From Planctomycetales bacterium (GTDB lineage: Bacteria; 4484-113): a stretch of 11,421 bases of DNA. The position numbers and the translations under genes were made by a program. The DNA lies in the NCBI GenBank assembly GCA_037445915.1, contig JBBIJQ010000048.1:4284-15704 (forward strand), read 5' to 3'. The notes below the pieces were generated by a model. It was not told where the DNA came from. It was given only the letters and a program-made list of their open reading frames with translations, and made no database searches. Shown one piece after another: positions 5,661 through 11,153 of the stretch (its first letter is position 1; each line of letters starts with the position of its first letter).

Positions 5661-5741
5661 TGGGCGGGGGGGGACTTGAACCCCCACGGGTTACCCCACT
5701 AGCTCCTAAGGCTAGCGCGTCTGCCATTCCGCCACCCGCCC
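5661..5741 (-). tRNA. tRNA-Leu (anticodon UAG), CCA not encoded
   Basis: Reverse complement folds as GGGCGGG-TG-GCGGAATGGCAGACGC-G-CTAGC-CT[TAG]GA-GCTAG-TGGGGTAACCCGT-GGGGG-TTCAAGT-CCCCC-CCCGCCC-A: 7-bp acceptor stem, class II variable arm, discriminator A. Confidence 0.96.
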
Positions 5742-5936: not shown

Positions 5937-6036
5937 ATCCTAGGCTTTAGCCCCTCCTGCATTTGCCACGCAAAGGGGCTTTCTTGCATTCCGCCAAAGC
6001 TAGGCAATACAGCCGGTGGAACTAGGAGGACACTCA

Positions 6037-7077
6037 ATGAAGCTGATGATAATTGACGCGCCAAGCTTGAACGCGTTTGTGGACAAGCTTATTGGCGCGC
6101 ATCCCGTTATGGGCGTTAGGCAGCATAACGGGGATGGGAAACATTTCACGTTTGCCCGGCTGAGCGACGCTAAGGAGCTTAGGCTGGATTATGGCGTGAC
6201 GGTCCAGTCCCCTAAGAAATTTTTTTCCCCGCAGAAGGAAATTTTGCTGCACTTCAAAAGGGCTGATTCTCAAGCTGAAGCCGCGCGGCTGGACGCTGCG
6301 CCTTTTGTTTTGATTGGCGTTCACCCCTATGACATGGTTGCCATCAACCAGCTTGACCGGGTGATGCGCGAAGGCAATCCCGACGAGCAATATCTTAAGC
6401 GCCGCGAGGCCGCCATCATCATCGGTGTGGACCCGGTGAATGTTGGGGAGCGAGCGTTCTGGGGCTCAATGGGAACCTGGGAAGTCAGCGAAGGATACGA
6501 TGTCTGGCTGACCGATATTGGCGGTAAGTTTGTTGTTGAAACCGCAACCTTGAAGGGCGAAGAGGTTGTCTCCAAGTTTGCATCAACAAAGGGAGCTTCC
6601 GCCGACGATGCCAGGAAGCGCGAGGAAGTGCGCGCCAAGCTCCAGAAGCTTGGAACAACTACTGATGTTAAGTTTAAGCCTGAAGAACTGCCAGGACTTC
6701 TTCGCGGAAACTTTGAACATCCCATTTGGGATGAGAAGGCGCAAAAGTGCTACTCCTGCGGGAGCTGCAACCTTGTCTGCCCAACTTGCTACTGCTTTGA
6801 CGTGCAAGACCACGTAGATATTTGCCTCACTCAGGGAACGCGTTACCGCATTTGGGACAGCTGCCTGCTTGAGGAGTTTGCCATCGTCGCCGGAGGCGAG
6901 AACTTTCGCGAGCACAGGCAGCAGCGCTACCGCCACCGCCTGTTTCGCAAGGGATTATACCTTTACGATAAGGTTGGCGACATAGCCTGCGTTGGCTGCG
7001 GGCGCTGCGCAACGGCTTGCCTGCCCGACATCGCAGACCCAGTTGATGTTTACAACATTCTAAAGGAGGGCAAGTAG
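6037..7077 (+). CDS. hydB: Group 3b [NiFe]-hydrogenase (sulfhydrogenase) beta subunit, 4Fe-4S dicluster protein
   Basis: SPKKFF.PQKE and GVHPYD motifs; ferredoxin motifs CYSCGSCNLVCPTCYCF and CVGCGRCATAC; R.WDSC. Start placed at ATG 6037, 7 nt after AGGAGG. Confidence 0.9.
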   Translation: MKLMIIDAPSLNAFVDKLIGAHPVMGVRQHNGDGKHFTFARLSDAKELRLDYGVTVQSPKKFFSPQKEILLHFKRADSQAEAARLDAAPFVLIGVHPYDMVAINQLDRVMREGNPDEQYLKRREAAIIIGVDPVNVGERAFWGSMGTWEVSEGYDVWLTDIGGKFVVETATLKGEEVVSKFASTKGASADDARKREEVRAKLQKLGTTTDVKFKPEELPGLLRGNFEHPIWDEKAQKCYSCGSCNLVCPTCYCFDVQDHVDICLTQGTRYRIWDSCLLEEFAIVAGGENFREHRQQRYRHRLFRKGLYLYDKVGDIACVGCGRCATACLPDIADPVDVYNILKEGK

Positions 7078-7935
7078 GTGACCTTCCATCACGCAGAGAA
7101 TATGTATGTTCCGGTCCCTGCCACCATCAAGAATGTAGTGCAGCTCACTCCGATTGAGAATGTATTCACTATCGCGCTGGATAACGGCAAGCCATTAGGG
7201 CACAAGCCTGGGCAGTTTGTGGAGATATCGGTGTTCGGCATTGGCGAAGCGCCAATCTCGGTGACTTCTTCGCCAAGCCGCAGCAACGGGACGTTTGAAC
7301 TGGGCATCCGCAAAGTCGGCGATGTGACAGGCGCGATGCACGGCCTTAATGCCGGAGCGAAGATTGGCATCCGCGGCCCGTTCGGAACGAGCTTCCCTGT
7401 TGACGAGATGAAGGGCAAGGACGTCTGCGTCGTCGCAGGCGGCTGCGGCTTGTTCCCCGCGCGCTCGGTCATCAATGAAGTTGTTGACAACCGTAAGGAT
7501 TACAACCGCGTCATCATACTCTATGGTACGCGCTCCCCGGGCGACCGCCTGTTTGTAGAGGAGCTTGCTGATTGGCATATACGTGAGGAAATTGAGTTTT
7601 ACGAGACAGTTGACCGCGCCGAGGCTACCGAGGAGAACAGCTTGGCATGCTGGTCGGGTAATGTGGGAGTGATTACGACGCTCTTTCCCAAGGTTGAGCT
7701 TGACCCCGCCAAGACCTATCCGATTGTCGTCGGCCCTCCAATTATGTACAAATTCGTGCTAAAGGAACTGGAGAAGAAGAGCATCCCTCATGAGCAGATT
7801 TTTATGAGCCTTGAGCGGAGGATGAAATGCGGCGTTGGCAAGTGCGGCCATTGCCAGATAAACGGCCTGTATTCATGCCAGAGCGGCCCCGTCTTCCGGT
7901 ATTCTGACATCCGCCATTTGAAGGAAGCGTTGTAA
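7078..7935 (+). CDS. hydG: Group 3b hydrogenase gamma subunit, FAD/NAD(P)-binding with [2Fe-2S] cluster
   Basis: PGQFVEIS.FGIGEAPIS, GIRGPFG, VAGGCGLFP, YGTRSP, VGPPIMYK and SLERRMKCGVGKCGHCQI...CQSGPVF. GGAGG at 7065-7069 before GTG. Confidence 0.92.
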   Translation: MTFHHAENMYVPVPATIKNVVQLTPIENVFTIALDNGKPLGHKPGQFVEISVFGIGEAPISVTSSPSRSNGTFELGIRKVGDVTGAMHGLNAGAKIGIRGPFGTSFPVDEMKGKDVCVVAGGCGLFPARSVINEVVDNRKDYNRVIILYGTRSPGDRLFVEELADWHIREEIEFYETVDRAEATEENSLACWSGNVGVITTLFPKVELDPAKTYPIVVGPPIMYKFVLKELEKKSIPHEQIFMSLERRMKCGVGKCGHCQINGLYSCQSGPVFRYSDIRHLKEAL

Positions 7936-8672
7936 TGAAACCGAGAATCGCATTCTTTGATTTTGCCAGCTGCGAAGGCGACCAGCTCCAAGTAGTCAAC
8001 TTGGAGGAAGACCTTCTTGCGCTGCTTGAACATGTTGATGTTGTGAGCTTCCGTGAGGCGATGAAGGAACATAGCGACGAATACGACATCGCATTTATAG
8101 AAGGTTCCATTACCCGCCTTGTGGACGAAGAGCGCCTGAAGAAGATACGCGCCAATGCCACGTATCTTGTCGCGTTAGGCTCGTGCGCCACAATAGGAGG
8201 CATCAACGCTATCAAGAACTTCCACAACCTGGAAGAAGTGCGCAGATACGTCTATGCAGACAAGTGGCAGGAATATGACACTTATGCGACAAAACCAGTG
8301 AATGCAGTAGTTCAGGTGGATGCGTATGTTCACGGCTGCCCGATTGACCGTACGGAGTTTATGAACATCGTGAAAGCGATGTTGCTTGGAAAGAAGCCCC
8401 CGCTGCCTAACTACCCGGTCTGCGTGGAATGCAAGCTAACAGATAACGTTTGCGTCTTCCAGAAGGGCGAGTTCTGTCTTGGCCCAGTGACGCGCGCAGG
8501 CTGCAAAGCGTGCTGCGTGACTGAGGGTTGCATTTGCTGGGGATGCCGAGGTTTCGTGGATGATCCAAACAACGAAGCCCACAAAGAGGTTCTGGAGAAA
8601 TACGGCCTAAAGGCGCAGGAAGTCATCAACAAGTTTCGCCTTTACGGCGGGTGTTCGCAGGAGGTTGAGTAA
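7935..8672 (+). CDS. hydD: Group 3b hydrogenase delta (small, Fe-S) subunit
   Basis: FASCEGDQLQ, FIEGSI, LGSCAT.GG, HGCP, VCVECK, CLGPVTRAGC and C.CWGCRG. No Tat signal (cytoplasmic). TAATG overlap with the upstream gene. Confidence 0.92.
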   Translation: MKPRIAFFDFASCEGDQLQVVNLEEDLLALLEHVDVVSFREAMKEHSDEYDIAFIEGSITRLVDEERLKKIRANATYLVALGSCATIGGINAIKNFHNLEEVRRYVYADKWQEYDTYATKPVNAVVQVDAYVHGCPIDRTEFMNIVKAMLLGKKPPLPNYPVCVECKLTDNVCVFQKGEFCLGPVTRAGCKACCVTEGCICWGCRGFVDDPNNEAHKEVLEKYGLKAQEVINKFRLYGGCSQEVE

Positions 8673-9976
8673 TGACCGGAAATAGTGACGTCAAGGTGAA
8701 CGTGCACTACGTGACCCGAGTAGAGGGCCACGGCAATATACATGTAGAGATCAAGGGCGGCAATGTAGTTGATTGCCGATGGGAAGTGCCTGAAGCACCG
8801 CGTTTCTTTGAGGCGATGGTACGAGGGCGCATGTGGCACGAAGTGCACCACATCACAAGCCGCATCTGCGGCATCTGCTCCATCGGACACACGCTCGCAA
8901 GCGTAAAGGCGACTGAAGCTGCGATGGGTATCAATGTCACGCCGCAGACCGAAAAGCTGCGCCGCCTTTGCATCCATGCGGAAAACCTGCAAAGCCACAC
9001 GCTTCACGTTGGCTATCTCGTGCTGCCCGACTTGCTGGGAGTTGACAGCGTTGTCCCGCTTGCTTCAACGCATCCCGTGGAAGTGAAGACCGTCATCCGC
9101 TTGCACAAAGCTGCAAACGAAATGAGCGACCTGCTTTGTGGCCGCACAACTCACCCGCAGCGTCTCGTTCCCGGTGGCTTTACGAAGCTGCCGACGAAAG
9201 AGCAGCTTAGTGCGTTAGCGAGTGGGCTTGAGGCAGCAATTCCAGATTTAAAAGTTGTCGCGGGGCTTTATGGAGCACTCCAGGGCAACTTCCCGAAGTT
9301 TTGGCGCGAGACCGAATACATTGCGCTGACTGCCGACAATGAATACGCCCTTTACGACGGCCATATCGGCAGCACTGACGGCGGAACTTGGCCGGTGCCG
9401 GAATATCGCGGTATCGTGAATGAATATCTCGTTCCGCAATCAACCGCGAAATGGGGCAAACACAACCGCGAGTCGTTTATGGTAGGCGCACTGGCACGCT
9501 TCAACCTAAACTACGACAAGCTCTCGCCGATGGCTAAAGACATTGCGAAGTCACTGGGCCTCCAACCCGTGAACTGCAACACTTATATGAACACGGTTGC
9601 GCAGGTTGTAGAGTGCGTTCACAGCTTTGAGGATTCGCTGAACATAATCAACGGGCTTATCAAAGAAGGTATCCACGACGAGAAGCCGCAAGTAACACCT
9701 CGCGCTGGCAAGGGAGCTGGAGGAGTAGAAGTTCCGCGTGGAGTTCTATTCCACGAATACGAATACAACGACGAAGGGCGTTGCACCGGCGCAAACTGTG
9801 TGATTCCAACGAACCTCAATCACGCGAACATCCAGCTTGACTTTGAGGCGATAGTGCCGACGCTCATCGGCAAGTCCGAGAAGGAAATAGAGCTGGCGCT
9901 GGAGATGATGGTTCGCGCATATGACCCATGTATCTCATGCTCCACGCATTACCTTCGCGTGAACTTTGCGAAGTAA
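8672..9976 (+). CDS. hydA: Group 3b [NiFe]-hydrogenase alpha (large, catalytic) subunit
   Basis: TRVEGHG, PRFFE, L1 motif SRICGICSIGH, EVPRG.LFH, VIPT..N, and L2 motif RAYDPCISCSTH followed by an 8-aa extension (YLRVNFAK). TAATG overlap. Confidence 0.96.
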   Translation: MTGNSDVKVNVHYVTRVEGHGNIHVEIKGGNVVDCRWEVPEAPRFFEAMVRGRMWHEVHHITSRICGICSIGHTLASVKATEAAMGINVTPQTEKLRRLCIHAENLQSHTLHVGYLVLPDLLGVDSVVPLASTHPVEVKTVIRLHKAANEMSDLLCGRTTHPQRLVPGGFTKLPTKEQLSALASGLEAAIPDLKVVAGLYGALQGNFPKFWRETEYIALTADNEYALYDGHIGSTDGGTWPVPEYRGIVNEYLVPQSTAKWGKHNRESFMVGALARFNLNYDKLSPMAKDIAKSLGLQPVNCNTYMNTVAQVVECVHSFEDSLNIINGLIKEGIHDEKPQVTPRAGKGAGGVEVPRGVLFHEYEYNDEGRCTGANCVIPTNLNHANIQLDFEAIVPTLIGKSEKEIELALEMMVRAYDPCISCSTHYLRVNFAK

Positions 9977-10001
9977 GGTCTCACTACATATTACGCCGCG
10001 A

Positions 10002-10035
10002 AACAAGCGCAGCCCTTTCGGTGGCTGCGCTTGTT
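10002..10035. terminator. Bidirectional intrinsic terminator between convergent transcription units
   Basis: Perfect 13-bp inverted repeat AACAAGCGCAGCC (10002-10014) / GGCTGCGCTTGTT (10023-10035), with T-rich ends in both directions. Confidence 0.85.
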
Positions 10036-10066
10036 ATAAGCTTACTCCGAGCTAGTTGCCTCTTGG

Positions 10067-10444
10067 TCATTCGAAATTTGGCTTTGTCCCGAACATTTCC
10101 CGCAACTTAATAACGGCTTCGGAATGCAGGCGCACAAACGTAGCTCCAGGGACTGCTTCACGTGCCGCCGGCACGTAACGCTCGTTTCACTGGTAGACGA
10201 AGATTACCGGGATGGAACTTGTGGACTTACGCTCATGTATTGCGCGCGCCGTCTCAATGCCGTGTTTGGCCCTGTACGCCATATAAACCACCACGACATC
10301 CGGTTTCCTCTCGGCTGCGAGCTTGTATGCCCTAGCGCCGTCTTCGTTCTCCAGTATCACGTCCCACCCCTCACACTCATAGCGCGCGGCTTGCTTCTCT
10401 GAATATTCCTTGTTCCAGCTAATCAGCAGCACCTTTGGTTTCAT
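10067..10444 (-). CDS. Atypical single-domain response-regulator receiver (CheY-like) with in-frame TGA at 10189-10187; readthrough/selenocysteine candidate or nonsense pseudogene
   Basis: KVLLISW...EDGARAYKLAAERKPDVVVVY...GIETARAI...TSSIPVIFV matches receiver beta1-beta4. The frame continues after the TGA for 39 aa (NERYVPAAREAVPGATFV...PNFE) to TGA 10069-10067, giving 125 aa. GAGGTG RBS is 7 nt before ATG 10444. Confidence 0.7.
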
Positions 10445-10859
10445 CTTCATTCACCTCGTTAGATATCTGGAATTTCGGCTTTACAGGAATGCTGGTCAAC
10501 AGCGACCATAATCCCGCAAGTACGGGGGGGAACACAAGCGCGGCATATACTGCGAGCGTTTGCACGTGAAAGTAATAACGGAAATGGATGCCCGCCGCGA
10601 TGAGCAACACGCCGCCGATAACCGGGAAACGGAACGCCGTCAGTGTTACAGCCAGCAGCAACAGCCCTGGTGTAATGCTGTGCATCAATATTCCTGTGAT
10701 ATCGTAGCCTTCCGAAATGCTCTCGGCGATGGCGAACCAAGTCCAGAACAAACCTGCCAGCCCGGTTGTTGCCAGCAGGATGTAGCGGATCACCGTAGAC
10801 ACTGAAAACTTGGTGTTCGGAGCTTTTTCCATATACGTTCTTTTCGGCTTAAGCCGCAC
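10419..10859 (-). CDS. Hypothetical membrane protein with about 4 TM helices
   Basis: Four hydrophobic segments (YILLATTGLAGLFWTWFAI; PGLLLLAVTLTAF; IGGVLLIAAG; VYAALVFPPVLAGLWSLL). Start is GTG 10859 or ATG 10832. Confidence 0.75.
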   Translation of the reverse strand: MRLKPKRTYMEKAPNTKFSVSTVIRYILLATTGLAGLFWTWFAIAESISEGYDITGILMHSITPGLLLLAVTLTAFRFPVIGGVLLIAAGIHFRYYFHVQTLAVYAALVFPPVLAGLWSLLTSIPVKPKFQISNEVNEDETKGAAD

Positions 10860-10874
10860 TTGATTATTATGCGC

Positions 10875-11153
10875 TTATTGCGGCGGCTGGCACGCTCGGC
10901 TACGGCAATCGTCGGCGACATCCTTCGGGATTATCCTTAGCGCAAGGATTATAAGCGCTGGGATGATGATAGCGTCGTCAATGTGGCCGATAACCGGGAT
11001 AAAGTCGGGGATGATGTCAAACGGCAGAAACGCGTAACCCACCGCTGCTCCCACCAGCCATCGGGCAAGGCGTGGCGTCCGCCTGTCGGCAAGCATCAAG
11101 CGGTACGCCGAAAGCTCCCGTCTTAAATCGGCCAGCGTAATCCGCTTAGGCAT
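10875..11153 (-). CDS. YkvA/DUF1232 family small membrane protein
   Basis: Hallmark DRRTP..ARWL...AVGY...[20 protein letters not shown]...I.LALR.IP. Confidence 0.9.

Follow-up and report, generated by a model that had tools for sequence, protein, structure and literature searches.

Whether an in-frame UGA codon with a stem-loop directly behind it marks a broken gene, an ordinary stop or a site of selenocysteine (Sec) insertion is the question raised by a short gene on the minus strand of the 11,421-nucleotide stretch of Planctomycetales DNA analysed here (referred to as the window). The gene encodes a protein of receiver-like fold and, on comparative sequence evidence, probably represents a new selenoprotein family rather than a broken gene; Sec is likely to be inserted at residue 86, by SelB and Sec-tRNA(Sec) acting at the hairpin. 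The basis for this is a conserved UGA with a hairpin of the selenocysteine insertion sequence (SECIS) type, a selected downstream frame, the Sec machinery of the lineage, and a fold that depends on the extension behind the UGA. The core idea of the initial annotation of the window, that the gene of a receiver-fold protein has a candidate Sec codon (UGA) and a bacterial SECIS behind it, is well supported by the comparative evidence.

The start codon is the ATG at 10444-10442, from which 85 codons are read up to ...IPVIFVYQ and the TGA at 10189-10187. A Shine-Dalgarno-like GAGGTG (10457-10452, read from the sequence) is found 7 nt 5' of this ATG, and a second ATG lies two codons 5' of it, at 10450 on the same strand; the homologues all start with MKPK. 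Past the first TGA, 39 further codons are open (NERYVPAAREAVPGATFVRLHSEAVIKLREMFGTKPNFE) as far as the TGA at 10069-10067, and the total product with the UGA read comprises 125 residues. The frame stop, the number of further codons and the length of 125 aa given in the initial annotation all hold. The 12 known members of the clade (the window's own included) are annotated as proteins of 85-90 aa, either 'response regulators' or hypothetical proteins; the corrected product, if the Sec reading is true, would be 125 aa long.

In the following, G000 is the window's own genome (1.79 Mb in 120 contigs, 90% complete) and G001 a genome of the same genus from a separate assembly (62% complete). For positions 10187-10189, where the initial annotation had proposed a check of the reads, the TGA was checked in Logan contigs from four public runs (one study); the contigs span the triplet, show no difference there, and all carry TGA. 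A divergent variant, which corresponds to the database protein P0002, is seen in the contig of run X2; it has 21 differences within 10190-10238 and none within 10056-10189. On the mRNA, these differences lie in a stretch of 49 nt that borders the UGA on its 5' side and comprise four amino-acid changes along with synonymous ones, the UGA, the hairpin and the extension being identical; either a recombination tract with its end at the UGA or a chimeric contig could explain the pattern.

The same arrangement is present in G001, where a gene of 76% identity has a TGA at the same codon and the same hairpin. A search with the clade profile in a collection of 5.8 billion proteins gave 3608 candidates, including 29 proteins at E<=1e-8. 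Eleven of these proteins, with identities of 67-95%, are all 85 aa long (one has 89, with a longer N-terminus) and finish with ...FV[YFH]Q at the UGA column, as seen from the end of the called protein and not from the type of stop codon. The remaining 18 are full-length proteins of 110-130 aa with at most 43% identity. Genome-contig scans with the protein, the clade alignment and a degenerate SECIS pattern found G001 alone among clade members, and a metagenome-contig scan gave one weak locus, which is unrelated. In the 24 species genomes of the phylum that were searched, the clade occurs in G000 and G001 only. As judged by these comparisons, the TGA is neither an error nor a recent nonsense mutation.

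Directly 3' of the first TGA the mRNA reads AACGAGCG-UUACGUGCC-GGC-GGCACGUGA. The hairpin arms ACGUGCC (10176-10170) and GGCACGU (10166-10160) form a perfect core of 7 bp around a GGC loop (10169-10167), and the addition of U-G and U-A pairs lengthens the stem to 10178/10158, 9 bp altogether. The loop is spaced 17 nt from the UGA. The SECIS-like hairpin described in the initial annotation, with its G-initial loop, was reproduced, and RNAfold returns exactly this structure. The 56-nt context folds with -21.3 kcal/mol and z of -2.16 (4 of 200 shuffled sequences fold equally well), the 21-nt hairpin by itself with -12.0 kcal/mol, and the counterpart in G001, which has an 8-bp stem, with -13.8 kcal/mol.

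The frequency of such hairpins in G000 was determined with a strict genome-wide rule (perfect stem of at least 7 bp, loop of 3-5 nt starting with GG or GU, 16-20 nt past the stop). They are found behind 4 of 2890 TGA-ended frames of at least 80 codons and behind none of the 2155 TAA-ended or 2720 TAG-ended frames; when all TGA triplets of the genome are taken, the number is 16 of 54147. The other three cases among the TGA-ended frames have merely 3, 11 and 17 open codons beyond the stop and are terminator-like. The occurrence of the hairpin is above chance. Between G000 and G001, 32 of the 36 nt 3' of the UGA are unchanged, and 46 of 63 in the remaining extension. The 17-nt hairpin core is the same in both genomes, with all six third-codon positions within it unchanged, and the sole change in the stem, from U-G in G000 to C-G in G001, costs a Tyr-to-His replacement; this one change, between these two genomes only, is also the whole of the covariation that can be assessed. 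The hairpin thus compared appears constrained beyond what coding accounts for. The bSECIS model, as given in PMC13188914, has a loop of 3-9 nt with G in the first two loop positions, a stem of 4-16 bp, a spacing of 16-37 nt and a minimum free energy (MFE) of at most -7.5, with the loop pattern N1-G-[G/U]-N-N2; the hairpin satisfies all four constraints quoted there, the loop pattern included (C-GGC-G).

The 39 codons behind the UGA were compared with G001 in all three frames. For the 33 shared codons, frame 0 gives proportions of nonsynonymous (pN) and synonymous (pS) differences of 0.10 and 0.53, respectively, and an omega of 0.12, whereas in frames +1 and +2 omega is 1.3 and 5.0. Of 21 differences, 13 are located at third codon positions. 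The part 5' of the UGA shows a pN of 0.13 and a pS of 0.78, and immediately past the extension stop of G001 the ungapped identity is 27%. Because the low omega is confined to frame 0 and the identity drops past the stop, the extension appears to be translated in frame with the upstream part and to be under purifying selection.

The extension matches the C-terminal third of full-length relatives residue for residue (e.g. AVPGATFV / KVPDAVFV). An AlphaFold2 model, calculated from a family alignment of 90 sequences, has a pLDDT of 95.6 and a pTM of 0.89 and predicts a complete (beta-alpha)5 fold of five strands and five helices. In the model, beta4 comprises residues 80-83, Sec86 is placed in the beta4-alpha4 loop, and alpha4 (88-97), beta5 (102-104) and alpha5 (107-118) follow; if the extension is left out, the predicted fold is short of one strand and two helices. 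The homology and the model both agree with the assignment of the extension, in the initial annotation, to alpha4-beta5-alpha5 of a receiver fold. The closest structures in the PDB, according to Foldseek, are the receiver domains RpaA, RR468, CheY4, DivK and Spo0F (TM 0.73-0.79). In the protein database, a search with a 43-aa query gave no extension peptide called as a protein of its own.

TGA is an ordinary stop codon in G000, where the open reading frames of at least 300 codons end with TAG (340), TAA (329) or TGA (234). Global reassignment of TGA (codes 4 and 25) was considered and ruled out, since TGA ends 234 of these 903 frames. The genome contains selA (360.7 bits), a SelB wing domain (62.8 bits) within a 658-aa frame, and selD (330.8 bits; contig C26:8769-9680, locus L003). 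The selD gene has one in-frame TGA itself (SCAG-UGA-ASKV), and its SECIS consists of an 8-bp stem with a GGU loop 17 nt past the UGA, which is also the spacing of the candidate; the genome's own selD can therefore be taken as an internal positive control for the geometry of the candidate hairpin. Sec use extends to relatives of the same order and class: two of them have selA and a selD with a TGA, and an in-frame TGA is present in selD of the relatives G021 and G011. The selD hairpin of G021 was recognised by eye (GGUCA-GGC-UGACC, at the same distance); the RNAfold MFE structure of the 60-nt segment pairs otherwise.

Besides selD and the studied gene, no other selenoprotein was recognised in G000 by the limited scans that were run. 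The FdhA-like (Molybdopterin) and FlpD/MvhD matches of G000 have no in-frame stop, and two genome scans for TGA followed by a hairpin gave, besides the studied gene, wrong-frame or terminator cases only. A variant of the scan with a codon score was too strict and missed the studied gene and selD as well.

The protein, for which the initial annotation had proposed a response regulator, is not a canonical one. The Pfam model Response_reg (PF00072) gives 23.2 bits, below the cut-off of 30.2, and covers residues 27-86 only; all NCBIfam matches are far under their cut-offs. When the protein is aligned with L027, a canonical receiver (VDDDD...LLDV), its segments at these columns read ISWN and VVYM, so S-W takes the place of the acidic pair that follows beta1, and Tyr that of the phospho-acceptor Asp. 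Tyr, Phe or His is found where canonical receivers have Thr/Ser at the end of beta4, and the Lys after beta5 aligns with Arg. The catalytic roles of these columns are presumably those known from CheY. Its sequence places the protein in a large family, unnamed so far, of small pseudo-receivers, and phosphotransfer by it is unlikely because the Pfam score is below the cut-off and the receiver catalytic residues are replaced.

At E<=1e-3, a profile search for the parent family among 1.84 billion representatives gave 8584 proteins, with true receivers among the weaker matches; at E<=1e-10 the number is 801. The family (members include P0010, P0013 and P0163) is characterised by the motifs HW(N/D)..EA, LPSHGRETA and IPIIFV(D/G)G. 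Neither Pfam nor NCBIfam has a model that scores above its cut-off for it, and in the ESM Atlas, with a natural relative as the query, the clusters are labelled 'hypothetical protein'. Fusions with alpha/beta-hydrolase, DUF3052 and AMP-binding domains are found in the family (P0031, P0063, P0081 and P0014 can be named), one protein of 2855 aa has 16 matched stretches, and many forms of ~250-270 aa have a C-terminal part without a Pfam match.

Several observations weigh against Sec at residue 86. The residue at the Sec column was counted in the 97 relatives of 100-165 aa out of 149 matches listed, and among these matches none of the 97 full-length, single-domain relatives has Cys at that column or within +/-2 columns. 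The column is occupied by E, D, K, A, S, T, N, P and other residues, and by S, E, Q, D or K in those full-length relatives that are nearest. According to the deep-Sep paper, Cys homologues exist for nearly all selenoproteins, so that the candidate is unusual in this respect. Of all results, this lack of a Cys counterpart argues most against an ordinary Sec/Cys redox pair. Thus, of the two outcomes named in the initial annotation as supporting Sec at the UGA column, the conserved UGA was found (in G000, the X2 variant and G001) and Cys was not. Cys24 (counted from the 10444 start, in YECEGW) is almost invariant in the clade and was considered as a resolving Cys for a Cys-Sec pair; it was rejected, as it is located in the alpha1-beta2 turn, which we take to be at the opposite end of the receiver fold from the Sec86 loop.

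The other adverse points are related to the RNA and the machinery. The codon, the hairpin and the extension were seen as DNA in two species and one variant, the other 10 clusters being represented by the truncated protein only. The Rfam scan of 9950-10500 (E<=10) returned no SECIS family, but four chance-level matches to sRNA or lncRNA families at or near the terminator. No RNA run is among the sequencing runs listed for the locus, a result that has no bearing on expression. In G001, selD was not found (62% of this genome is present). In G000, tRNA-Sec was not found by Rfam or ARAGORN: the best Rfam tRNA-Sec matches have 46.3 and 45.7 bits (gathering score 47) and are called tRNA-Ser by ARAGORN, which lists 39 tRNA genes and none for Trp, Asp, Ile or Sec. 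The search for selA, selB, selC and selD suggested in the initial annotation was therefore positive in G000 for all but selC, which is present in G001. G001 has selA as well as a tRNA-SeC with the anticodon tca (73.7 bits). Nothing in G000 matches the tRNA-Sec region of G001 taken together with 1.5 kb of flanking sequence at either end, which points to an assembly gap in G000 and not to a biological absence.

Three other explanations of the locus have to be weighed. One is a pseudogene, or a TGA that was produced from CGA, TGG or GGA by a nonsense change or by a mistake of sequencing or assembly; this is the commonest source of in-frame stops in metagenome-assembled genomes, and relatives do have a sense codon at the UGA column. 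The initial annotation had considered such a change 'at least as plausible' as Sec. This estimate is rejected by the independent contigs, the second species and the 11 clusters: the TGA is present in contigs of four runs, including the divergent variant, and in another species from another assembly, 11 of 11 close clusters end at the UGA column, and the downstream frame is under purifying selection. We consider an error or a decayed gene extremely unlikely. It is also improbable that the UGA terminates an 85-residue product, with the conserved ~100 nt behind it serving as a 3' structured RNA or coding for a separately started peptide (e.g. from a GTG at extension codon 5). The 85-aa protein is what every gene caller annotates, this part alone yields the same weak Pfam match, and there is an in-frame GTG inside the hairpin. 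Yet the downstream substitutions are protein-like and keep to the reading frame of the upstream part (omega 0.12, 13 of 21 at third positions), the extension is homologous to alpha4-beta5-alpha5 of full-length relatives, and the 85-aa fragment is predicted to be devoid of one strand and two helices. No Shine-Dalgarno-like sequence precedes the GTG (by eye), and no extension peptide is called in the protein database.

The UGA may instead be read through without Sec, by a near-cognate (Trp, Cys, Arg) or suppressor tRNA, with the hairpin as a readthrough stimulator and a standard residue at position 86. Such decoding accounts equally well for the selected downstream frame and the conserved hairpin, would account for the absent Cys homologues, and agrees with the failure to find tRNA-Sec in G000. 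A sense codon would, however, do the same at no cost, yet the stop is retained in 11 of 11 close clusters; the hairpin equals the selD SECIS in loop class and exact spacing and satisfies the bSECIS model as far as quoted above; the genome has both selA and selB, its selD is a selenoprotein gene too, and tRNA-SeC occurs in the sister species, while no suppressor tRNA with a tca anticodon is listed by ARAGORN in G000. Readthrough of this kind has, in our estimation, little chance of being correct.

Under the preferred reading, insertion of Sec, the gene would produce a stand-alone pseudo-receiver of 125 residues with a CheY-like (beta-alpha)5 fold and no phospho-acceptor Asp, in which the UGA at 10189-10187 is decoded as selenocysteine. 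The hairpin, with its GGC loop 17 nt away, would act as a bacterial SECIS and bring SelB, loaded with Sec-tRNA(Sec), to the ribosome during its pause at the UGA; after insertion of Sec, translation would proceed into alpha4-beta5-alpha5. In the model, Sec86 in the beta4-alpha4 loop adjoins the pocket that houses the phosphorylation site in true receivers. In the latter, the beta4-alpha4 loop shifts upon phosphorylation. The selenol might therefore make the adaptor protein a switch sensitive to redox state, metal or selenium status, and it might conceivably modulate the alpha4-beta5-alpha5 face; alternatively, the signal could be that full-length synthesis depends on how much selenium is supplied. 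A redox-switch function is pure inference, because Cys occurs in none of the 97 relatives at the Sec column.

The candidate is a SECIS-dependent bacterial selenoprotein with two unusual traits, a signalling fold and the lack of a Cys counterpart. To our knowledge, the bacterial selenoproteins are almost all redox enzymes for which relatives with Cys exist, and the pipelines for their prediction rely on Sec/Cys pairing. No receiver or response-regulator selenoprotein was found in the literature, in which the family table of the BSepDB supplement was possibly not fully covered. The terms 'response regulator', 'receiver' and 'CheY' are absent from the selenoproteome review PMC13188914 (2026), from the BSepDB paper (111 families) and one supplement of it, and from Haft's preprint, in the parts accessible; the deep-Sep paper likewise has neither 'response regulator' nor 'CheY', and 'receiver' occurs in it only within 'receiver operating characteristic'. 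A more far-reaching proposal, which is tentative and rather doubtful in its entirety, is that this would be the first selenoprotein of the CheY/receiver superfamily, in which Sec arose at a loop position that was never Cys and the selenol, or the supply of Sec-tRNA, toggles the alpha4-beta5-alpha5 face. In the same speculative proposal, (Y/F/H)Q-U would replace the conserved (D/G)G turn of the family at the beta4-alpha4 switch loop and provide a redox or selenium response. If true, a clade of signalling-fold selenoproteins without Cys counterpart would be overlooked by pipelines based on Sec/Cys pairing, selenium biology would be widened to a non-catalytic adaptor or switch protein, and the locus would offer a compact, testable example of the origin of Sec at a non-Cys position.

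In both G000 and G001 the Sec gene is convergent to a four-gene cluster (6016-9976, plus strand) of a group-3-like [NiFe] hydrogenase, which encodes a Fer4_22 subunit, an FAD/NAD subunit, the small subunit and the large subunit. The C-terminus of the large subunit, DPCISC, has Cys and not Sec. On the 5' side, the Sec gene of G000 is separated from an Eis-like acetyltransferase gene by DUF1232 and DUF7670 membrane-protein genes (10419-11153, minus strand); in G001 (L035 1763-3357) both are absent and the acetyltransferase gene is directly 5' of the Sec gene. By comparison of the two sequences, this difference is an insertion or deletion between the species. The DUF7670 protein is probably not an obligate partner of the Sec protein, because it is absent at the G001 locus, and from the differing upstream genes it follows that the context does not tie the gene firmly to any function. 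A GC-rich hairpin of 13 bp is located ~32 nt past the second stop, in agreement with the terminator placed about 30 nt behind the gene in the initial annotation. It is likely a bidirectional terminator; the consensus terminator scan did not list the 10035-10002 hairpin. Further away, between a zinc-dehydrogenase gene and the hydrogenase cluster, there is a tRNA-Leu gene with the anticodon tag (5661-5741, minus strand).

Table 1. Features of the candidate selenoprotein locus, in window coordinates.
Feature	Position	Strand	Remarks or support
Codons 1-85, MKPKVLLISW...IPVIFVYQ	10190..10444	-	beta1-alpha1-beta2-alpha2-beta3-alpha3-beta4, receiver-like; equals the 85-aa protein of gene callers
In-frame UGA, proposed Sec codon, residue 86, beta4-alpha4 loop	10187..10189	-	four runs, G001, 11 clusters
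SECIS-like hairpin UUACGUGCC-GGC-GGCACGUGA	10158..10178	-	fold, conservation in G001, selD geometry, bSECIS model
39-codon extension, putative alpha4-beta5-alpha5; stop TGA 10069-10067	10070..10186	-	omega versus G001, homology to full-length relatives
13-bp GC-rich hairpin between the convergent genes	10002..10035	-	fold z -2.74
DUF7670 membrane-protein gene, 5' neighbour on the same strand	10419..10859	-	its end overlaps the start of the Sec gene by 26 nt

In comparison with known systems, the window protein resembles the PF00072 receivers (CheY, Spo0F, DivK, RR468) in the predicted (beta-alpha)5 fold, with the TM values given above, and in being a stand-alone, single-domain protein of ~120 aa; the Pro before beta4 and the hydrophobic beta-strands are retained. 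It differs from them by a score below the Pfam cut-off and by the loss of the acidic pair and the phospho-acceptor Asp. With the parent pseudo-receiver family it shares 28-43% identity along its entire length, and thus also in the segment that follows the UGA. In the Sec clade, though, HW is changed to SW, LPSHGR to (A/P)K(H/Q/L)GI and FV(D/G)G-x to FV(Y/F/H)Q-U, which suggests that the pocket-facing motifs have been remodelled, and where the clade has UGA the other members of the family have an ordinary sense codon. With the genes of bacterial SECIS selenoproteins (selD, fdhF) the locus shares the in-frame UGA and the adjoining stem-loop with a small G-initial loop; the distance of 17 nt lies within the 16-37 range, the stem has 9 bp, the MFE is -12, and selA, selB and selD are present. 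Unlike these selenoproteins, the protein has no Cys homologue at the Sec position (0 of 97 among the matches listed), and its predicted fold is CheY-like, not that of a thiol oxidoreductase or of a molybdo-, Ni- or Fe-enzyme.

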